Shown here piece by piece: positions 25,662-62,115 of a DNA stretch of 64,000 nt. Numbering within the stretch: the stretch's first letter is position 1; each line of letters begins with the position of its first letter. The notes beneath the pieces were generated by a model, which saw only the letters and a program-made list of their open reading frames with translations, was not told the DNA's origin and searched no databases. A program made the translations under genes and the position numbers. The stretch covers positions 219,389-283,388 of the forward strand of contig JAKLDN010000001.1 of assembly GCA_022703505.1 (NCBI GenBank), written 5' to 3'. The stretch is from Spirochaetota bacterium. GTDB lineage: Bacteria > Spirochaetota > Spirochaetia > Treponematales > UBA12059.

Positions 25662-26288
25662 TTGAACGTGTTCCGGGAGCCGATCGAAAAGGGTGACATC
25701 ACCTCGGAAGCCGGCCTCAAACGGACTTTCCGCGCCCTGGCCCTCCGCCTTCACCCGGACACCTGCCTGGCCGGCGACGCCGCCGAGCGGTTCCTTCGGC
25801 TCCGACGGGACTACGACGAAGCCCTCCGGGAGCGGGGCTGGCACCGGCCCGCCCCCGCCCCGGGGGAGCCCTTCTCCTTCGAGGCTTGCGTCGACCTATT
25901 CGGGGAGCTCGTGGGGGGAAACTTCCCCGCGGATCCCCGGGTGGGCCGGACGAACCGGGCTTATCGTCAGCGGGCGGAACGGCTGGACACCCTTTTAGGG
26001 AGCCTGGGGGGCGATTACGTCGGCCTGTTCCGGAAGGCCGAGGGGGAGCTCGAAACCCTGCGGGGGGACGACATAGTAGACAACCCGGACTTCAACCTCG
26101 TGAAGATCTTCCTGTGCAACCTCTACGACTGGCTCTCGTCCCGGCACCGGTTCTCGGGTCACTACGTGCGGACGGCCTATCCCCGGGTCCGGGAGATCCT
26201 GGACCGCCGGGGCTGCCCCGCCTCGGCCCGGTTCCTGGAGTTCCTCCTGGCCGGGGGAGCGCGGCGCGCGGGGGCGTCCCGGGACTAG
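25662..26288 (+). CDS. J-domain-like protein (HPD motif)
   Basis: [15 protein letters not shown] followed by [14 protein letters not shown] resembles J-domain helices II and III. The start is a non-ATG codon (TTG at 25662 or GTG at 25668). The stop TAG lies inside a CTAG hairpin element. Confidence 0.55.
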
Positions 26289-26432
26289 GAGTTTGTCGGG
26301 CTTGTCCACCTAAATAGTAAAAAAATCGCATTTGTGCGATTTTTCTACCTTGCAAACTCCAAAGGAGCCGTATAATCGGGATTTTTAGCGCCTATCGGCG
26401 CTAAAAATCCACAAGTCCGACAGGCTCCCTAG
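26285..26432. mobile_element. composite of two CTAG-bounded hairpin elements (subfamily 2 forward, subfamily 1 reverse), MITE/REP-like
   Basis: 26285-26360 has GGAGTTTG...CAAACTCC outer pairing and an AAAATCGCA-TTTG-TGCGATTTT core. 26364-26432 is the reverse complement of the element seen at 44511 and 62045. Confidence 0.8.
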
Positions 26433-27061
26433 GGACGCTGGATATAGTCCGCTGCGCCGAAGAGCCCCAGGGTGCCGGTCCGCCACTCCTCGTGGGCCTC
26501 CATCACCAGGCGCTCCACCTCGGACCAGGATTCCGCCCGGGGGGGCGGCAGGTGGCGGTTCGTGGAATTCCCGAACACGATGGTACGGCAGCCCTGGGCC
26601 CGGAGGTTCTCCACGTTGGAGGGTGAGTCGTCGATGTAGACGTGGGCTCCCACGGCCCCCTTGTCCTTCATGAAGCAGAGGTCCCAGTAGGGGATGGCGT
26701 GGGCGTCCAGCCAGTCGATGGTCTGGGCTATTGCTTCCTTGTGGAAGTATTTCAGGAAGAGCCGGTGGGTGATGATGCGGATGCGGATCCCACGCTCGGA
26801 CAGCTTGCGCAGGGTGGCCGAGGCGCCCTTCACGGGGGGCAGGATCCGGAAGAGGTCCCGCTGGGTCACGGCGAAACGGTGGAGCTTCTCGTAGCCCCCG
26901 AACTCGTCCAGCCCCCACTCGGAAAGGCCGAAGGACACGTCTGTGGCCAGGGACTCGACCGGCCGGTCCAGCCACTCCGCCGCGATCTGCCGCATGCTGG
27001 TGTAGAAGTCCCCCACCACCCCGTCCAGGTCCACGCCCAGGATGAAACTGCTCTCGTCCAT
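26429..27061 (-). CDS. HAD-superfamily 5'(3')-deoxyribonucleotidase-like hydrolase
   Basis: The HAD motif I is GVDLDGVVGDF. The start is taken at MDESSFILG (27061); the track ORF extends to 27175. Confidence 0.7.
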   Translation of the reverse strand: MDESSFILGVDLDGVVGDFYTSMRQIAAEWLDRPVESLATDVSFGLSEWGLDEFGGYEKLHRFAVTQRDLFRILPPVKGASATLRKLSERGIRIRIITHRLFLKYFHKEAIAQTIDWLDAHAIPYWDLCFMKDKGAVGAHVYIDDSPSNVENLRAQGCRTIVFGNSTNRHLPPPRAESWSEVERLVMEAHEEWRTGTLGLFGAADYIQRP

Positions 27062-27197
27062 ACCCGCCAGTATGGCGCGCCCGCCGCCGTCCGTCCACTC
27101 CTCCTTGGCCCCACCAAAATCGCCTAAGCTAAACTTCGACGCGCACTCGCCGAAGGAGGCGCGGAATGCTACCATGGGCTTCCATCAGGAGGCTCCC

Positions 27198-34623: not shown

Positions 34624-36162
34624 ATGAAGGATCCAGGGGCCGTTTCCAAGGGAACCCGCGAGCAGGCCCTGCGCTATATCGACTACGCCTCCCTGCAGGA
34701 ACGCTTCGACGCCCTGGTGCGCGGCGGCTCGGACCTGAAGACCCGCCGGAAATTCATCACCGACGTCTTCCTGGCCAAGAACCGGGCCATCCGGGACCTG
34801 GATTTCCGCACCCTGGATCCCCGGTCCATCGAGGACGACTACCTCCGGCCCCGGAAGGACTTGAGCTCCTTCGTACTGCGGAACTGGGTGAACGGGGTCT
34901 TCCTCCCATCCCTGGAGCCGGACCTGACGGGGGGACTCTTCCTCTTCGGCCTGGGACGGATGTTCTCGGCGTACAACGACGTGGGGGTCCAGTCCTGTAC
35001 CGACGCGGACCTGAATTTCGTGATCCAGGACGAGGTGCCCCCGGCCGGACGGAAGGTCCTAGAGACGGAGCTCCGGAAACTCCGGAAGGAAGCCTTCGAC
35101 CAGTTCGGCATCCTCATCGAGATCCACCCGGAATACACCATCCAGGACGCGAGCGCCGTCTCCGCCTCCCTGACCCATCCGGATCCGGAGCGGCGTCTCG
35201 GAAGCGCCCTCTTCTACAAGAGCAACGAGAAGAGCATCTTCGTATTCAAGGACCACCCGGAGCTCCGGGCGCGGGTGTTTTCCAAGGTGAGCGCCTTGCC
35301 GGACTCCTGCCTCTTCGAGCACTTCCTGGGTCTCGGGAGCGCCAAGAACTCCTTCCTGAAGATCCGGATGGACCGGACCCCCCTCACGGTCCTGGAGGAA
35401 TACACCTGCGAGCAGATCCAGACCCGGGCCGTCATCGGATCCCGGGCCTTCGGCCAGTACTGCTTCAAGACCCTCCGGAAGGTCCCCTTCGCCTCCCCGC
35501 CGGTCTGGTACTTCTCCATGAAGTACTTCGTCAACCGGGTCTACGACTACGTCTGCGCCATGCGGAACATGGGGTACGGGCTCCCGCAGATCGGCTTCGA
35601 CTCCGAGGATTCCACGGGAAGCCCCGATCCGGACTACCTCTTCCTGCGCAACGCCCACAAGCTCATGCTCTATCTCCAGGAGCTCATCCAGCTGTCCATG
35701 GAGTCCTTCGGGATGGAGTGCGACTACTCCTACATCTCCCGGGCGAGGTTCCTGAAGTTCATGGAGATCGACGGGGACAAGTTCCGCAAGAATTTCCAGG
35801 AACTCGTGCTGGGAGGGAAGCTCCTGCCTCCGACAGCCCGGGAAAAGTTCCTGCGCCTCAAGCGCAAGATCGAGGAGAAGTCCCGGGACCGGATCGTGCA
35901 CTGCGACAAGAAGGACCTGGAAGCCTTCCCGGAGGGCTTCAAGTACGAGACGATCGACCGGGACTCCGCTCGCCGCAGGATCTGGGTGCCCTATTCCTGG
36001 GCGGACCTGGGATTCTTCGTGTTCAACGTGATCGCCGCCCGGATCGGCCAGATCGTGGACTCCCGGCTGGTGCCGCCCCTCGCGCGCTTGGACGCCCGGG
36101 CCGGCGCCCCGGAGCCCGAGGCCGGAAGTCCCGCCCGGAAACGCGCCCGGCGTTCGGCCTAG
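34624..36162 (+). CDS. putative nucleotidyltransferase (GlnE/GlnD/DUF294-like Pol-beta fold) with a large helical C-terminal region
   Basis: FGLGRMFSAYNDVGVQSCTDADLNFVI resembles the hG[GS]x(9-13)DxD NTase signature, as in GlnE (GKLGGRELNxxSDIDL). No other domain was recognised. Confidence 0.6.
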   Translation: MKDPGAVSKGTREQALRYIDYASLQERFDALVRGGSDLKTRRKFITDVFLAKNRAIRDLDFRTLDPRSIEDDYLRPRKDLSSFVLRNWVNGVFLPSLEPDLTGGLFLFGLGRMFSAYNDVGVQSCTDADLNFVIQDEVPPAGRKVLETELRKLRKEAFDQFGILIEIHPEYTIQDASAVSASLTHPDPERRLGSALFYKSNEKSIFVFKDHPELRARVFSKVSALPDSCLFEHFLGLGSAKNSFLKIRMDRTPLTVLEEYTCEQIQTRAVIGSRAFGQYCFKTLRKVPFASPPVWYFSMKYFVNRVYDYVCAMRNMGYGLPQIGFDSEDSTGSPDPDYLFLRNAHKLMLYLQELIQLSMESFGMECDYSYISRARFLKFMEIDGDKFRKNFQELVLGGKLLPPTAREKFLRLKRKIEEKSRDRIVHCDKKDLEAFPEGFKYETIDRDSARRRIWVPYSWADLGFFVFNVIAARIGQIVDSRLVPPLARLDARAGAPEPEAGSPARKRARRSA

Positions 36163-36182
36163 GAGCCTGTCGGACCTGCTAG
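36159..36182. mobile_element. remnant of a CTAG hairpin element (16 nt between two CTAGs)
   Basis: CTAG-GAGCCTGTCGGACCTG-CTAG matches the first 20 nt of the 62045 element. Both CTAGs serve as stop codons of the convergent genes. Confidence 0.7.
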
Positions 36183-36964
36183 GGCAACCGGGCCTCGAGT
36201 TCCCCCTCCCCGTCGAAGGACCAGGACAGGGCTCGCAGCGCCTCCAGGGGCAGGGCGGGACTCCGGACCGTCCGCAGGGAAACCCAGCCGACGGAGAACT
36301 CCCTCCCTTCCAGCACCCCCGTCAGGGGCCCCGGCTTCCGGGGGAAGTCCAGCAGTCCGCCCCCGCCGCCTCCGGTCAGCCGCGAGAGCCGATACCTCCG
36401 AGGGCCGAAGAGGGGGGCGAGAGGGCCGGCCAGGTCCAGGACCCGGGCTTCCAGGGCGCAGTCCGATCCCTCCACCCGCACCCGGGACAGCACGGGCACG
36501 GCGTTCCGGTCCGGCACGGCCAGGTCGCCGGAAGCCCCCGCCGCGGTCGCCTCGTAGGGCACCAGGCGGGCGACTTCCCGGCCGGGCACCAAGGGGTGCC
36601 AGACCGAGGTCTCCCCCGCGGCCAGGCCCAGGAAGGAGAGGACCAGCACGGCCAGGGGAATTCCGGCCCGGCCCGGGAAGAACGCGGACAGGCATCCCAG
36701 GGCCCCCCAGGCGCCCGCCCAGATCCAGAGCGTCCGGTCCGCGAGCAGGGGTTTGGGCGGAAGGATGAGGAGCGCCGCCAGGCAGGCGACCGCCGCCGCG
36801 AGCCCCAGGGAAACCCCGCTGAGAACCCGTCGGGGTTTGCCCCCCCGGCCTGACCGGCCGGCGCTCAGGGCGAGCAGGCAGAAGGCCGCCGCCGCCCCCA
36901 GGGAAAGCCCCCCGAGGGCCGCAGCGGCCCAGCCGGCGCCCGCGGCGGCCAGCTCAGAATCCAT
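36179..36964 (-). CDS. hypothetical membrane protein
   Basis: The 261-aa ORF has 3-4 N-terminal TM segments followed by a soluble domain. Its start overlaps the upstream carboxypeptidase stop by 11 nt. Confidence 0.5.
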   Translation of the reverse strand: MDSELAAAGAGWAAAALGGLSLGAAAAFCLLALSAGRSGRGGKPRRVLSGVSLGLAAAVACLAALLILPPKPLLADRTLWIWAGAWGALGCLSAFFPGRAGIPLAVLVLSFLGLAAGETSVWHPLVPGREVARLVPYEATAAGASGDLAVPDRNAVPVLSRVRVEGSDCALEARVLDLAGPLAPLFGPRRYRLSRLTGGGGGGLLDFPRKPGPLTGVLEGREFSVGWVSLRTVRSPALPLEALRALSWSFDGEGELEARLP

Positions 36965-42438: not shown

Positions 42439-44514
42439 GTGTACCTGCGGGAACTGACCCAGAGCGTGTCCGCCCTGAAGGGGGCGGGTCCTTCGGTCTG
42501 CGCCCGGCTGGCCCGGCTGGGGGTGTACACCGTGGCGGACCTCCTTCTCAGGGCGCCCCGGGCCTACGAGGACCGCTCCCGGGCCGTGCCCTTCCGGGAG
42601 GCCCTGCGGACCGGCCTCCCGGCGAACACGGTGGGGGTGGTGACCGCCCACGACTGGTTCGGCTACGGCCGGACCCGGACCCTCAAGATCCTGGTGGACG
42701 ACGGGACCGCCGTCGCCGCCCTGGTCTGCTTCAACCGGGCCTTCCTGGCGGACCGCCACCCCGTGGGCTCCCGGTCCCGGGTCACCGGAAACCTGGCCCT
42801 CCGGTTCAACGAGCTCCAGGCCGCCTCCTTCGAAATAGAGGCGGCCGCGGAGGGACAGGGCCCCGAGGCGGGGGTCCTTCCCGTCTACCCCCTCACGGAC
42901 GGCTTGGCCCAAGGTACCGTCCGGAAGCTCGCGGCCCGGGCCCTGGCCGAGTACGGCCGCCGGGTGGAGGACGAGGTGCCGGTCCGGATCCGGGAGCTCC
43001 GGGGCCTGCCGCCCAAGGCCCGGGCCTTGGAGGACCTGCACGCCCCGGGCGACCCGGAGGCCGCGGAGCACGCCCTCCGTGCCCTGGCCTACGAGGAGCT
43101 CTTCTACCTCCAGGTCCTGGTGCGCCGCAGGGCCGCCGCCCGGGCGGAGCGCCCCGCGGACCGGTCCGCGGGCCCCCCGGCCCGGGCGGGGCTCCGCCCC
43201 CGGCTCCTGGAGCGCCTCCCCTTCCGCCTTACCGCGGACCAGGAGAAGGTGGCCGCCGAGATCGCCGCGGACATGGAAAAGCCCCGCCCCATGGCGCGCC
43301 TCTTGCAGGGGGACGTGGGCTCGGGTAAGACCCTGGTCGCCTTCCTGGCGGCCCTGAAGGCCGTCGAGTCCGGGGGGCAGGCGGCCCTGATGGCCCCCAC
43401 GGAGCTCCTGGCCCGGCAGCACGCCCAGACCGCCGCCCGGCTCCTGGAGCCCCTGGGGGTGCGCCTGGCCTTCCTGACCGGCAACCTCCGGGACGCCTCC
43501 CGCCGTCCCCTCCTGGCGGCCCTGGCCGCGGGGGAGGTGGACTTCGTCCTGGGGACCCACGCCCTCTTCTCGGAGGACGTGGAGTACCGGCGCCTGGCCC
43601 TGGCGATCGTGGACGAGCAGCACCGCTTCGGGGTGCTCCAGCGCCTGGCCCTGTCCCGCAAGGGCGGCGCACCGGACCTGCTCATGATGACCGCCACTCC
43701 CATACCGCGGACCCTGGCCCTGACGGTCTACGGGGACCTGGAGGTTTCCACCATCCGGACGATGCCTCCGGGCCGGAAGCCCGTGGTCACCCACCTGGCC
43801 CGGCACGGCAACGAGGCCAAGGTCTACGAGTTCGTTCGGAAGGAGCTGACGGAGGGACGGCAGGCCTACTTCGTCTACCCCCTGATCTCCGGCAGCGAGG
43901 CCGGGTCGCTCAAGGACGCCGAGGCCATGGCCCGGCACCTGGCCGAGGAGGTCTATCCCGGGATTCCCGGAGGCCTCATCCATTCGAGGTTGCCGGACGA
44001 GGAGAAACGCTCCGTCATGGAGGCCTTCACCCGGGGCGGGCTGCGGTACCTGGTCGCCACCAGCGTGGTCGAGGTGGGCGTGGACGTGGCTGCGGCCACC
44101 TGCATGGTGGTCGAGCACGCGGAGCGCTTCGGCCTGGCGGCCCTGCACCAGCTCCGGGGCCGGGTGGGCCGGAGCGAGGCCCAGTCCTACTGCTTCCTGG
44201 TCTATTCCCGGGACCTCTCGGAGGAGGGAAAGCGCCGTCTCAAGGCCATGAAGGAGACCACGGACGGGTTCGCCCTGGCGGAGGAAGACCTGCGCATCCG
44301 GGGTCCCGGCGAGATCGCGGGCATCGCCCAGTCGGGCTCCCTGCGGCTGGCCTTCGCGGATCCGGTCCGGGACGCGGACCTCCTGGAAACCGCCCGCCTG
44401 GACGCCGCCGGGATCGTGGACCGGGATCCGGGCCTTTTGGAGCCGGAGCACCGGGTGATCCGGGAGGTCCTGGATCGGGCCAACCCCTTCCCTGCGGAGA
44501 GCTCCGGAGCCTAG
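42439..44514 (+). CDS. recG: ATP-dependent DNA helicase RecG
   Basis: There is an N-terminal wedge/OB region. Helicase motifs are GDVGSGKT, DEQHRFG and TATPIPRTL, followed by the TRG-region motif QLRGRVGR. The start is GTG. Confidence 0.95.
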   Translation: MYLRELTQSVSALKGAGPSVCARLARLGVYTVADLLLRAPRAYEDRSRAVPFREALRTGLPANTVGVVTAHDWFGYGRTRTLKILVDDGTAVAALVCFNRAFLADRHPVGSRSRVTGNLALRFNELQAASFEIEAAAEGQGPEAGVLPVYPLTDGLAQGTVRKLAARALAEYGRRVEDEVPVRIRELRGLPPKARALEDLHAPGDPEAAEHALRALAYEELFYLQVLVRRRAAARAERPADRSAGPPARAGLRPRLLERLPFRLTADQEKVAAEIAADMEKPRPMARLLQGDVGSGKTLVAFLAALKAVESGGQAALMAPTELLARQHAQTAARLLEPLGVRLAFLTGNLRDASRRPLLAALAAGEVDFVLGTHALFSEDVEYRRLALAIVDEQHRFGVLQRLALSRKGGAPDLLMMTATPIPRTLALTVYGDLEVSTIRTMPPGRKPVVTHLARHGNEAKVYEFVRKELTEGRQAYFVYPLISGSEAGSLKDAEAMARHLAEEVYPGIPGGLIHSRLPDEEKRSVMEAFTRGGLRYLVATSVVEVGVDVAAATCMVVEHAERFGLAALHQLRGRVGRSEAQSYCFLVYSRDLSEEGKRRLKAMKETTDGFALAEEDLRIRGPGEIAGIAQSGSLRLAFADPVRDADLLETARLDAAGIVDRDPGLLEPEHRVIREVLDRANPFPAESSGA

Positions 44515-44581
44515 GAGCCTGTCGGACTTGTGGATTTTTAGCACCGATAGGCGCTAAAAATCCCGATTATTCGGCTCCTAG
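44511..44581. mobile_element. CTAG-bounded hairpin element (subfamily 1), followed by a 5' fragment of subfamily 2 (44578-44597)
   Basis: CTAG-GAGCCTGTCGGACTTGTGGATTTTTAGCACC-GATA-GGCGCTAAAAATCCCGATTATTCGGCTC-CTAG. The first CTAG contains the recG stop. Confidence 0.8.
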
Positions 44582-44608
44582 GAGTTTGTCGCGGGCGCCG
44601 ACTCGGGC

Positions 44609-45832
44609 TTATCCCTCCCGGCGGTACACCAGGCCCGAGAAGCCGTCCCGTTTCCGCTCGAAGGCTCGGGTCCAGCCCGAAGGCTTGCGGCGGTCGAAGC
44701 GCCCGGCCTCGGTGGGGCGGCCGACCATCACGAAGGCCGACCCGGGGGCGGCGGACCGGGAAGCCCGTTCCCAGATAGGACCGATCCAATCGAACTCGGG
44801 GACCGGGTCCGGGAACTCCACGATCAGGTCGAAACCGCCCTCGAACGATTCCCCGGTTTCCAGTCCGTCGGATTCCGAGAGCTCCGGGGAAAAGCCCGCG
44901 GCGGCCAGGTTCCGGCGGGTCGCGGCGGTCTGCAGGCAGTCCCGGGAGACCAGCCGGAGTCTCTCGACCCCGAATCTTCCGCAGAGGTACAGGGCGAGAT
45001 GGCCCGGTCCGGGATTCCCGATCGACACGCGCCGGATCACGGCATCCCCGGCGGCACGGGCGCAGAGCCCCGCGGCCAGGACCGCGGCGTAGGAGGGGGT
45101 ATCGAAGTCCGGAAGCCCCCAGTACCCGGACAGAGGGTACCGGATCCCCGCCAGCTCGAAGGCCGAGCGGCAGCGCTCGTACACGGCCAGCTCGTCGGCC
45201 GCGGGGGGAAGCTCCGTCCCCCGGCCCCCGGCGATCACCGTATGCCCGGGTCCCGCCTCCTCCTCATGGATCTCCGCCCCCGAGGCCAGGGCCGCTGCCC
45301 GGACCGCCGGGGCGATGGGATTCACCACCACCAGGGCGAAACGGCCGTCCTCGGAGAGAGCGGACGGGAGGCGCCGCACGAAGTCCTCGATGACCGGGGG
45401 CCCGGCCTTGGCCGGAACGTTGGAGACGATCCGGTCGAAGCGGCGGCCCGCCAGGCCGGCCAGGGTCAGGCCCGTCCCCCAGGACGCGGGCTCAAGGCCG
45501 TTGGCCCGGGCGTTGCGCGCCGCGAAGGCCGCGGCCAGGGCGTCCCGGTCCCGGAAATGGATCTCCGAGCCCGGCGACGCCGAGCCCAGGGCGATCCCCA
45601 GGATCCCGACCCCGCAGCCCAGGTCCAGGAGTGACCGGGCGCCCTCCGCGAACCTCGAGCGTGCCAGGACCTTGAGCAGGAGCCTCGTTCCCCGGTCGAT
45701 GTCGAAGGAGCTGAACAGGGCGTGGGACAGGTCCAGCCTGAGCTCCCGGCCGGAATAGCGGAAGGAGACGGATTTATGGATGTAGGGGTCGAGGGAAGGG
45801 AGTCGGGCGGGGGACGCGAACGGTTCAATCAT
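44609..45832 (-). CDS. SAM-dependent methyltransferase with two MTS-like halves (RsmC/RlmG-like)
   Basis: LLDLGCGVGILGIAL and VSNVPAKAG are present. The start is ATG 45832, or alternatively TTG 45838. Confidence 0.7.
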   Translation of the reverse strand: MIEPFASPARLPSLDPYIHKSVSFRYSGRELRLDLSHALFSSFDIDRGTRLLLKVLARSRFAEGARSLLDLGCGVGILGIALGSASPGSEIHFRDRDALAAAFAARNARANGLEPASWGTGLTLAGLAGRRFDRIVSNVPAKAGPPVIEDFVRRLPSALSEDGRFALVVVNPIAPAVRAAALASGAEIHEEEAGPGHTVIAGGRGTELPPAADELAVYERCRSAFELAGIRYPLSGYWGLPDFDTPSYAAVLAAGLCARAAGDAVIRRVSIGNPGPGHLALYLCGRFGVERLRLVSRDCLQTAATRRNLAAAGFSPELSESDGLETGESFEGGFDLIVEFPDPVPEFDWIGPIWERASRSAAPGSAFVMVGRPTEAGRFDRRKPSGWTRAFERKRDGFSGLVYRREG

Positions 45833-59471: not shown

Positions 59472-62048
59472 ATGGACCTCACGCTTCCCGTCACCGACCC
59501 GGTCGGCGTCTTTTTTATTCTCTTCGCCGCCCTCTTCGCGGCCCCCATCCTGGCGGAACTGGTCCGACTGCCCGGACTGGTGGGGACGGTGCTCGCGGGA
59601 ATGCTCCTGGGACCCCACGCCCTGGGACTGCTCGACGCCGGCGCCTTCCTGGAAACCCTGGGAGGCTTCGGCCTTCTGTACATCTTCTTCACCGCGGGAC
59701 TGGAGCTCGACCTCCGCAAGCTTCGCCGGAAATCCGCCGACGCCGTCGTCTTCGGGGGGCTGACCTTCCTGATCCCCCTCGGGCTGGGGTACGCGGCGGG
59801 GATCCTGGTGTTCGGCCTGCCCGTGGTGCCCGCCGTCCTGTTCGGAAGCCTCTTCGCCTCCCACACGATGCTGCCCTATCCCATCGTCCAGGCGATGGGC
59901 CTGTCCGGAAGCCGGGCGGTGTACGCCTCCGTCGGGGCCACGACGATAACGGACATCCTGGCCATGTTGGCCCTGGCCCTCACGACCGCCGGTTCCGGTC
60001 CGGGCTGGGAGTTCTGGCTCAAGACCCTGGGGATCCTCACCGCCTGGACCGTCGGGGCGGCCCTGCTCCTGCCGCCGCTCATCAGCCGGTTCTTCCGGCG
60101 GATCAAGTCCGGTGGGTCTTCTGAGTTCCTCTTCGCCCTGGCGGTGGCCTTCTTCTGCTCCGCCGCCGCGGCCCTGGCCGGGATCGAGCCGGCCGTGGGA
60201 GCCTTCGCCGCGGGCATCCTCCTGAACCGCCACATTCCCGAGCGCAGCGGCCTCATGTCCCTGCTCAAGTTCGCCGGGGATGCCCTGTTCATCCCCCTGT
60301 GCGTGCTGTACATAGGCGTCCTCACCGATGCGAGGGCCCTGCTCACGGACGGGCGCATGGCCGCCCTCGCCGCGGTCATGCTGGGGGTGGTGCTGGTCTC
60401 CAAGTACGCCTCCTCCCTCTTCCTCAAGCCCCTGTTCGGCTTCTCCCTGGGGGAGGTGAACATCTCCTTCGGGCTTTCCGTCAACCAGACGGCGTCCACC
60501 CTGGCCGCCGCCCTGGTCGGGTATCGGCTGGGACTGCTCGGGGAGGCCGTCTTGAACGGGACGGTGGTCATGTTCATCGTGACCTGCGCCCTGGGACCCT
60601 TCGTCACCCGAAGGGCCGCGTCCGCCCTGGCGGTGGAATCCACCCGGGGGCAGGCGGGACCCGGGCTCACGGGGGAGCGGATCCTGATCGCGGTCTCCAA
60701 TCCCGGCACCCTCCGCCCCTTGACGGACTTCGCGTTCCTGATGCGGGACCCGAAGTCTCCGGAGCCGGTCCTGCCGGTCTGCGTGGTCCAGGACTCGCCC
60801 AACGCGGACCGGGACCTGGAGCAGGCCGAGACGGTCCTGGCCCAGGCCATCGCCCAGGGCGTGGCCGAGGGAGTCCCGGTCAAGCCCTCCACCCGGGTCA
60901 GCCTCAACGCGGCGGAAGGCATCCTGCAGGCCGCCGAGGACCAGGAGGCCACGACGGTGCTGGTGGGATGGAACCGCCCGCCCCGGCCGTCGGGGGCCAT
61001 CTTCGGGGACGTCATCGACCAGGTGGTGGCGGGAGGCCGCCACCTGACCGTCGTGGCCCGCCTGCGCAGGCCCCTGCCGGAGTCACCTTCCCTGGTCCTG
61101 GTGGTCCCGCCCTTCGCGGAGAGGAATCCCGGAGCGGCCCGGGCCTACGCCCTCATGCGGCGGATCCTGGGCGGCGTTCCCGCCAAGCTCACGGTGTTGA
61201 CCCTGGCCTCCGACTCCTCCGGGGTCCGCGATTCCCTGCGGCGCATCCGGGGAGCGGCTCCCCACATCCAGGAGCTGGAATCCTGGAAGGAATTCTCCGG
61301 TGCGATCGCCAAGCAGCCCGAGGGAACCGCCTTCCTCTTCCTCTGTCCCCGGCCGGGACGCCTGGCCTGGCATCCCTACCTGGAACAGCTGCCCCGGGAC
61401 GCGGCCGAGGCCTTCCCGGACTCGACCCTGATGGTGACCTACCTTCCGGACGAAGGAGGCGGCGCGGAGAACTACCCGGCCGCGGCCGCGGAGTCCGTCT
61501 CGGGTCCGGCCGGGGAGGCGGCCGGCCCCGCTGCGGAAGGCACGACGCCCGCGCCGGCTCCGGCCGCCGAGGGGATACCCGAGCCCGCTGCTCCTCCCGA
61601 CTCCTCGGACCTCTTCTATCGGACCCTGGCCGGGTCCGGCCGGGTCATCCCCGACTTGCCCGCGGCGGCCGTGGTGGACGCCGTCCGGATCCTCCTGGAA
61701 CGGGGGTTCCCGGGCGACCGGAGGAGCGTGAACCGCCTGACCGGGATCTACGCGGAGATAGCCCAGAAACAGCCCATCGAGCTGGCCCCCGGAGTCCTCC
61801 TCCTGCACGCCCACGTGGACAATATCGAGGAGCCCCGCATCCTGATCGGAGCCAAGCCCGCGGGACTCCGTCTGCTGGCCCTGGAGGAGCCCATCCGGAT
61901 CGTGGTCCTGCTCTGCGCGCCGAGTTCCCAGTCCCCGGAGGACCACCTCCGGACCCTTTCCCTGATCGCCCAGGCCCTGAAGCGCCCGGAACGGGTGGCC
62001 CGGATCCTGGCCGCCAAGACCGAGGAGGATCTCCGGGAAGACTCCTAG
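59472..62048 (+). CDS. CPA2-family cation:proton antiporter fused to a Usp-like region and a C-terminal PTS EIIA(type 2) domain
   Basis: The N-terminal 380 aa or so form a Na_H_exchanger-type membrane domain. The C-terminal part has LLLHAHV and IRIVVLLCAP, characteristic of EIIA-Ntr/Fru-type domains. Confidence 0.85.
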   Translation: MDLTLPVTDPVGVFFILFAALFAAPILAELVRLPGLVGTVLAGMLLGPHALGLLDAGAFLETLGGFGLLYIFFTAGLELDLRKLRRKSADAVVFGGLTFLIPLGLGYAAGILVFGLPVVPAVLFGSLFASHTMLPYPIVQAMGLSGSRAVYASVGATTITDILAMLALALTTAGSGPGWEFWLKTLGILTAWTVGAALLLPPLISRFFRRIKSGGSSEFLFALAVAFFCSAAAALAGIEPAVGAFAAGILLNRHIPERSGLMSLLKFAGDALFIPLCVLYIGVLTDARALLTDGRMAALAAVMLGVVLVSKYASSLFLKPLFGFSLGEVNISFGLSVNQTASTLAAALVGYRLGLLGEAVLNGTVVMFIVTCALGPFVTRRAASALAVESTRGQAGPGLTGERILIAVSNPGTLRPLTDFAFLMRDPKSPEPVLPVCVVQDSPNADRDLEQAETVLAQAIAQGVAEGVPVKPSTRVSLNAAEGILQAAEDQEATTVLVGWNRPPRPSGAIFGDVIDQVVAGGRHLTVVARLRRPLPESPSLVLVVPPFAERNPGAARAYALMRRILGGVPAKLTVLTLASDSSGVRDSLRRIRGAAPHIQELESWKEFSGAIAKQPEGTAFLFLCPRPGRLAWHPYLEQLPRDAAEAFPDSTLMVTYLPDEGGGAENYPAAAAESVSGPAGEAAGPAAEGTTPAPAPAAEGIPEPAAPPDSSDLFYRTLAGSGRVIPDLPAAAVVDAVRILLERGFPGDRRSVNRLTGIYAEIAQKQPIELAPGVLLLHAHVDNIEEPRILIGAKPAGLRLLALEEPIRIVVLLCAPSSQSPEDHLRTLSLIAQALKRPERVARILAAKTEEDLREDS

Positions 62049-62115
62049 GAGCCTGTCGGACCTGTAGATCTTTAGCGCCTATCGGCGCTAAAGATTCCGA
62101 TTATCCGCCTCCTAG
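62045..62115. mobile_element. CTAG-bounded hairpin element (subfamily 1)
   Basis: CTAG-GAGCCTGTCGGACCTGTAGATCTTTAGCGCC-TATC-GGCGCTAAAGATTCCGATTATCCGCCTC-CTAG. The first CTAG contains the antiporter stop. Confidence 0.8.

Follow-up and report, generated by a model that had tools for sequence, protein, structure and literature searches.

The stretch of DNA analysed here, referred to as the window, comprises 64,000 nt of contig JAKLDN010000001.1 (positions 219,389 to 283,388, assembly GCA_022703505.1) of a Spirochaetota bacterium. At 26285-26432 a composite of 148 nt lies wholly between two stop codons, that of an open reading frame (ORF) on the plus strand (25662-26288) and that of the convergent NT5C (5′-nucleotidase) gene on the minus strand (26429-27175). 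Both stops are supplied by the CTAG sequences that bound the composite. An initial annotation had described it as two structured elements of two subfamilies joined head-to-head. Every sequence feature and pairing listed in that description is present, as verified with a repeat finder, but the segment is very probably one copy of a bipartite IS1182-type miniature inverted-repeat transposable element (MITE) and not two elements from two subfamilies. Its length, below about 300 bp, and its non-coding nature are those of a MITE. The bipartite element joins this known class with ends of the IS1182 family and with inner hairpins that are unusually well conserved.

The left half of the composite, module 2, consists of CTAG, the terminal repeat GAGTTTGTCGGGCTTGT, an 11-nt spacer, hairpin 2, CTTG and the short repeat CAAACTCC. 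The right half, module 1, follows after AAA with GGAGCC, GTATAATCG, hairpin 1, ACAAGTCCGACAGGCTCC and the second CTAG (Table 1). The two ends of 17-18 nt (CTAG|GAGYYTGTCGGRCTTGT; GAGCCTGTCGGACTTGT and GAGTTTGTCGGGCTTGT) form a pair of inverted repeats, and the 18-nt arms 26288-26305 and 26411-26428 are 83% complementary in the repeat finder. These terminal arms correspond to what had been noted as a super-palindrome. Within module 2 the tip of the end, GGAGTTTG (26288-26295), is complementary to CAAACTCC (26353-26360) at all 8 nt. Parts of the element are over-represented in the window: GGATTTTTAGCGCC with up to two mismatches has 6 matches against 0.17 expected, and TGTCGGNCTTGT with up to one mismatch has 6 against 0.62 expected.

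Table 1. Coordinates of the bipartite element and of related sequences in the window
Feature	Position	Strand	Remarks
Left flanking CTAG	26285..26288		Target site or duplication thereof; TAG is the stop of ORF 25662-26288 (+)
Terminal inverted repeat, GAGTT type, GAGTTTGTCGGGCTTGT	26289..26305	+	Outer end of module 2; located by repeat finder; also in IS1182-family insertion sequences, at least 113 loci
Hairpin 2, GTAAAAAAATCGCA-TTTG-TGCGATTTTTCTAC	26317-26330 / 26335-26348		14-nt arms, 93% complementary
Inner short repeat CAAACTCC	26353..26360		Complementary to GAGTT-end tip GGAGTTTG; nearly invariant
Module junction, AAA inside CAAAG	26361..26363		Lineage-variable, never CTAG
Inner short repeat GGAGCC	26364..26369		Complementary to tip of GAGCC end
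Hairpin 1, GGATTTTTAGCGCC-TATC-GGCGCTAAAAATCC	26379..26410		Perfect 14-bp stem adjoining the terminal repeat
Terminal inverted repeat, GAGCC type	26411..26428	-	Minus-strand reading GGAGCCTGTCGGACTTGT; one extra G beside CTAG
Right flanking CTAG	26429..26432		Complement gives the TAG stop of the NT5C gene 26429-27175 (-)
Lone terminal repeat, CTAG-GAGCCTGTCGGACCTG-CTAG	36159..36182	+	24-nt remnant; both CTAGs are stops of convergent ORFs 34624-36162 (+) and 36179-36964 (-)
Solo half-element (GAGCC end, hairpin 1, GGCTC)	44511..44581	+	71 nt; CTAG on both sides; left CTAG is the stop of ORF 42439-44514
Degenerate GAGTT-type end fragment	44582..44615	+	Direct orientation; CTAG shared with the 44511 copy; nhmmer E = 0.36, weak
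Solo half-element	62045..62115	+	71 nt; CTAG on both sides; left CTAG is the stop of ORF 59472-62048

More than 40 copies of the two-module unit, each of about 148 nt, are present in 10 or more genomes of the Treponema lineage, and one Treponema metagenome-assembled genome (MAG) alone contains the unit at no fewer than 17 loci. The 35 copies that were aligned, all from Treponema-lineage MAGs, measure 144-169 nt and are bounded by one GAGCC and one GAGTT end, with the terminal repeats conserved in every one. In their standard order, the GAGCC end and hairpin 1 are followed by GGCTCC, a short variable junction and GGAGTTTG, after which come hairpin 2 and the inverted GAGTT end. CTAG is found on both sides of nearly all copies, as expected of a target duplication. 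A scan of metagenomes with the pattern of the window's lineage yielded six distinct CTAG-flanked loci in contigs of 64-69% GC, one with a solo first half and five with bipartite elements that are 87-98% identical to the window copy and have unrelated flanks. Likewise, the copies at loci L042 and L051 share 95% and 91% identity with the window copy while their flanks show no homology to it. The unit thus occupies multiple unrelated sites. Not one of the more than 100 end matches listed revealed module 2 by itself, and in none of the 35 aligned copies is the junction CTAG. The composite arrangement is therefore not unique to this locus, and the supposed second subfamily holds insofar as the second half is no chance similarity and recurs in many genomes joined in the same way; as a separate subfamily it does not hold, the pair being one mobile unit. 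At locus L116 (7758-7905) both tips of a bipartite copy are of the GAGCC type, with GGAGTTTG still as the inner repeat, so the complementarity between tip and inner repeat is not kept in every copy.

The origin of the element is indicated by its ends. The pattern CTAGGAGYYTGTCGGNCYTGT, a 21-nt end plus CTAG, was used to scan one genome per species and matched at least 113 stretches in many groups, including Treponema, other spirochaetes, Parabeggiatoa, KSB1, Akkermansiaceae, Burkholderiales and Nitrospirae; viral contigs gave no matches to it. Most of the matches listed form inverted pairs 44-273 nt apart and hence small elements bounded by the end motif. In a Nitrospirae MAG (locus L090) the motif adjoins the gene of a 451-residue transposase that matches the NCBIfam IS1182 model NF033551 (368.6 bits against a cut-off of 270) and also Pfam DUF772, DDE_Tnp_1_6 and DDE_Tnp_1. 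Three complete annotated IS1182-family copies of about 1.55 kb on plasmids have the ends CTAG|SAGYCTGTCGGRCTT...GTCCGACAGRCTS|CTAG. These are ISAzo2 on plasmid 2 of Aromatoleum aromaticum EbN1 (CTAG|CAGCCTGTCGGGCTT...AGTCCGACAGGCTG|CTAG), a copy from Pseudomonas aeruginosa (CTAG|CAGCCTGTCGGACTT...AAGTCCGACAGGCTG|CTAG) and one from Methylobacter (CTAG|GAGTCTGTCGGACTT...GTCCGACAGACTC|CTAG). The ends of the MITE therefore match those that bound IS1182-family transposase genes, and they are shared with autonomous transposase-encoding elements, although the latter occur in other phyla. Among the listed loci no full-length element was found: the long end pairs are all neighbouring MITEs, and L090, the only locus with a transposase gene, is cut by the contig end. 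The architecture that had been regarded as common to two subfamilies is the terminal inverted repeat of a branch of the IS1182 family with CTAG as its target. The initial annotation had argued against a protein-binding sequence; the conserved motif CTAG-GAG..TGTCGG.CTTGT, as the end of IS1182-family insertion sequences, is of the very kind that proteins recognise. A widespread 17-nt end motif with CTAG flanks is now tied to the ISAzo2-type branch of this family. Since IS630 targets CTAG, an IS630/Tc1-mariner origin had also been suspected from the target; it was rejected as the transposases between such ends belong to the IS1182 family (DUF772, DDE_Tnp_1_6) and are not of the IS630-type DDE_3.

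We infer that the MITE is mobilised in trans. An IS1182-family transposase would bind both ends, excise the unit and insert it at the palindrome CTAG, leaving a CTAG on each side. CTAG is scarce in the window, where 64 kb of DNA at 69% GC contain it 22 times. Of 43 elements, 22 have at least one flanking CTAG that doubles as the stop codon of a long ORF, and in 7 of these both flanks do so. All four window copies are among the 22: a long ORF ends in the left CTAG and is followed by a convergent gene. Placement at stop codons is nearly the rule in the high-GC lineage. Insertions would fall at stop codons, often between convergent genes, because CTAG contains TAG on both strands and stop codons are a main source of CTAG in a GC-rich genome. 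Such an insertion would be harmless because duplication of the target regenerates both stops. An element that targets CTAG can thus enter overlapping convergent stops with neither gene harmed.

The host is a high-GC Treponema-lineage bacterium of anaerobic digesters. The window is 100% identical to metagenome contigs from anaerobic digesters and 99.9% identical to a contig of MAG GCA_035914875.1, and homologues of its NT5C gene are named Treponema or Spirochaetaceae. The element is present in all six conspecific contigs. In a related species, in which NT5C is 88% identical and a neighbouring gene of 261 amino acids 91% identical, a bare CTAG without the element stands at the NT5C stop, which fits an unoccupied target. 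At locus L135 the CTAG provides the NT5C stop and, on the opposite strand, also terminates a short ORF with resemblance to the middle part of the window's 208-residue ORF; the window ORF extends about 70 residues beyond it. L135 (1050-1070) and L137 (2740-2755), both from relatives of the window organism, have gcCTAGaccccgcg in common just past NT5C.

Further copies in the window are incomplete. A profile built from 35 related elements detected none beyond those in Table 1. The solo copies at 44511 and 62045, taken earlier for members of a first subfamily, are half-length derivatives of the bipartite element. Their probable origin, to judge by the sequence, is loss of module 2 through a deletion between two short direct repeats (CTCC...CTCC): removal of the DNA between the CTCC at the end of module 1 and that at the outer end of module 2 would yield exactly ...GGCTCC-TAG. 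In the 62045 copy one pair of hairpin 1 carries a compensatory exchange of T-A for C-G. The fragment that follows the 44511 copy (44578-44615 with the shared CTAG) seemingly holds an insertion of about 12 nt (GAGTTTGTCG-CGGGCGCCGACT-CGGGCTTAT), and its position suggests a second insertion into a regenerated CTAG followed by deletion. The 24-nt remnant at 36159-36182 may be a footprint left by excision or the outcome of a deletion. A lone end resembling this remnant was also seen at position 46 of locus L127.

Alignment of the inner hairpins required anchoring, as MAFFT misaligned the variable arms and RNAalifold then recovered only the end-to-end pairing and a small central stem. Stem-anchored alignments from the hairpin base were made for 38 distinct hairpin-1 and 24 distinct hairpin-2 sequences; MAFFT had gapped four hairpin-2 rows, and pairing in hairpin 2 was counted in Python. 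In hairpin 1, 91.0% of cells are standard pairs compared with 69.1% in shuffles, and the figure drops to 31-50% when one arm is slid by 1-3 columns; in hairpin 2 the values are 86%, 64% and 41-55%. None of 500 shuffles reaches the observed value for either hairpin. Both sides have changed in 12 of the 14 pairs of hairpin 1, the stem top of which occurs, for example, as AGCGCC/GGCGCT, GCTCC/GGAGC, GCGGT/ACCGC or GTCTGACCACT/AGTGGTCAGAC. The covariation of the inner hairpins is genuine. The outer stems GGAGCC/GGCTCC and GGAGTTTG/CAAACTCC are 98.8% paired and almost invariant, with a change on both sides in only one pair, in two copies from one MAG. The claim that outer and inner stems covary is thus borne out for the inner hairpins, which keep their fold while the sequence changes, and not for the nearly invariant outer stems. 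Comparing module 1 with module 2 as evidence of covariation is unsound, the compared positions not being homologous. In the minimum-energy fold, whether as RNA of either strand or as DNA, the terminal repeats pair and close a multiloop that holds both hairpins; the outer stems lose to this pairing. For RNA the folds reach -72.9 and -69.9 kcal/mol and for DNA -38.5 kcal/mol, all far below shuffles (z-scores of -7.8 to -10.1).

Selection on the structure of the hairpins is plausible from this pattern. Templated correction is well established in bacteria as a process that mutates quasi-palindromes, and covariation alone does not prove selection because templated mutation can also maintain the complementarity of a DNA palindrome. 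The hairpins of the MITE could accordingly be functionless and owe their complementarity to intrastrand template switching, a possible account which we nevertheless consider somewhat improbable. The stems of the hairpin variants are almost entirely Watson-Crick, with few wobble intermediates, the palindromy is equal on both strands, and other MITE families with the same ends lack such hairpins and must transpose independently of them, all as this mechanism would have it. Yet hairpin position, length class and the opposite polarity of the A/T runs are kept across lineages even where an element's identity to the window copy falls to about 70%, which suggests constraint beyond palindromy, and decayed single copies retain mismatches that have not been repaired.

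MITEs with the same ends in most other phyla have no internal hairpin longer than chance, so the hairpins are not a general need of the transposase and represent cargo specific to this spirochaete MITE lineage. The exception is a Burkholderiales/Thiomonas MITE of 169-170 nt (L091:1558-1726, L114:815-984, L057 and L018) that shares the ends and contains a hairpin at its centre (TTTTTGCCCCATAGC...GCTATGGGGCAAAAA), with a polarity (T-run, stem, A-run) like that of spirochaete hairpin 1. Hairpin 2 has the order A-run, stem, T-run in 22 of 24 variants, which reads the same on both strands, and lies 30-60 nt beyond each stop codon. Hairpin 1 shows the opposite polarity, T-run, stem, A-run, in 11 of 13 variants. 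As far as the sequence allows this to be judged, hairpin 2 would most likely act as a weak bidirectional intrinsic terminator, which would render insertions between convergent genes tolerable or useful. Hairpin 1 cannot terminate transcription on either strand. It is conceivable, though we hold it unlikely, that this MITE lineage spreads a 3′-end cassette to CTAG stops, in which hairpin 2 would act as a bidirectional terminator and hairpin 1 or the end stem as a stabilising or processing signal; selection for the RNA or DNA fold, in addition to any mutational upkeep of the palindromes, would then explain the covariation. Insertion would in that case regenerate both convergent stops and insulate each gene from read-through of the other. 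Should the hairpins work as terminators or stabilisers, the elements would constitute compact natural mobile 3′-end cassettes in spirochaetes.

The strong covariation of both hairpins, the very stable predicted folds (z-scores of -8 to -10) and the location of copies directly 3′ of stop codons would also suit a structured RNA (a small RNA or a cis-acting element of the 3′ untranslated region). On this account the fold is selected and the repeats are RNA genes and not mobile DNA. G-T mismatches also exceed A-C mismatches on one strand by about 26 to 11, a trend only, since the counts are non-independent and include some module-2 hairpins and double-counted copies. The best-conserved parts of the repeat are transposon ends that it shares with IS1182-family elements of other phyla, copies lie either way round with respect to adjacent genes and are CTAG-flanked at either end, and the stems are almost wholly Watson-Crick, as are those of DNA palindromes. 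The whole window has no Rfam match at the gathering threshold, and an E-value search of 26150-26560 returned nothing usable; the sole sub-threshold match, to isrK at 26319-26401 on the minus strand (17.1 bits against a gathering threshold of 50, E = 0.2), is taken as a chance, hairpin-driven hit. A selected RNA is thus very unlikely, and reclassifying an apparent structured-RNA candidate as a mobile element averts the false announcement of a new RNA family.

The composite as originally proposed, two independent short elements of two subfamilies brought head-to-head by chance insertion, is highly improbable as well. Each half does have its own terminal complementarity (GGAGCC/GGCTCC and GGAGTTTG/CAAACTCC), the first half is found alone with CTAG on both sides, and adjacent insertions are to be expected when CTAG is regenerated. 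They are exemplified at position 44578 of the window and at locus L069, where two bipartite elements stand in tandem at 1-279 with a single CTAG in common, as expected because each insertion regenerates its target. The bipartite unit itself may well have arisen long ago by such a joining. Against chance insertion, none of the 35 aligned copies has a CTAG at the junction, and the pair recurs in one relative orientation at dozens of unrelated sites in 10 or more genomes; moreover, module 2 does not occur alone among the matches listed, and the TGTCGGRCTTGT portion of the terminal repeat is missing from the inner ends. Least credible, to the point of being negligible, is a repetitive extragenic palindromic (REP) element or bacterial interspersed mosaic element (BIME) mobilised by a RAYT (IS200/IS605-like) protein. 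Such elements likewise consist of palindromic units paired in inverse orientation at gene 3′ ends, here between convergent genes, and in some lineages the hairpin-2 stem starts with GTAG, the conserved head of REP units, and ends with CTAC. That GTAG/CTAC base is, however, not conserved across lineages, and no RAYT-type gene was seen, although no search aimed at one was made. REP/BIME units moreover have neither terminal inverted repeats in common with a DDE insertion sequence nor a flanking duplication, in contrast to the element described here with true terminal inverted repeats identical to IS1182-family ends and CTAG on both sides.

Several points weigh against the interpretation as a bipartite IS1182-type MITE or against parts of it. 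No IS1182-family transposase was found by tblastn in the window or in the Treponema-lineage loci (8-kb pieces), and the partner is thus unseen in the lineage. Relatives offer no clean pair of filled and empty sites: where NT5C is 84-88% identical the CTAG is bare but the far flank is rearranged (L135), and at 79-83% synteny is lost. The duplication may comprise CTAG or only the TA within it, the sequences being compatible with either. The half-elements keep only about 5 nt of an end at their inner side, and their origin and mobility are for this reason a matter of conjecture. As to the hairpins, the 3′ arms were placed by a hairpin finder, which biases the counts towards pairing, although the margin is still large. 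The core stems of hairpin 2 are modest (-5.5 to -8.5 kcal/mol), that of the window copy being weak at -5.5 kcal/mol, and hairpin 2 of the window was not flagged by a simple consensus terminator scan.

Among known systems, the ISAzo2-type IS1182 elements have the same terminal inverted repeats (SAGYCTGTCGGRCTT...) and CTAG on both sides. They differ in being about 1.55 kb long and encoding a transposase, whereas the window element is a non-coding unit of 148 nt with two hairpins that are absent from the ends of the insertion sequences. Correia elements (CREE/NEMIS) of Neisseria and the ERIC sequences of enterobacteria are high-copy MITEs of about 100-160 bp with terminal inverted repeats and a TA-containing target. 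They are co-transcribed with their neighbours and reportedly act, by way of the stem into which their ends pair, on termination, promoters and RNase III processing. The end sequences and presumed transposase family of these elements differ from those of the window element, which has a CTAG target and two separate hairpins in its interior with opposite polarity of the A/T runs. In staphylococci, IS1272 of the IS1182 family is reported to target inverted-repeat DNA and to replace the target repeat without duplication (PMC5678879). The targeting of inverted repeats is consistent with the family favouring palindromes, CTAG among them, as targets; the absence of a target duplication is unlike the window element, which has the 4-nt palindrome on both sides. 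A census of MITEs described a Spirochaetes cluster (mainly Leptospira, Sediminispirochaeta and Treponema) with about 145 conserved, mostly intergenic MITEs per genome on average; its main text makes no mention of IS1182, hairpins or terminators (PMC11602168). Literature searches found no prior description of IS1182-derived MITEs or of a CTAG target.

Further variants were seen at other loci. Minimal elements consist of scarcely more than the two terminal repeats: one of 52 nt at L055 (12-63; CTAGGAGCCTGTCGGACTTGTTTCTTGTGAAACAAGTCCGACAGGCTCCTAG), one of 39 nt on the minus strand at L107 and one of 45 nt at L019. They show that the ends need little surrounding sequence. In MAGs of Burkholderiales and in others labelled Streptomycetaceae (L016, L064, L070, L099 and L109), the GAGTT end forms a fold-back (GGAGTTTGTCGGACTTGTGTTCGACAAACTCC), and TTAA or TAA comes next in place of CTAG. 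The element at L099 measures about 90 nt and has an opposite end of the CAGCC type.

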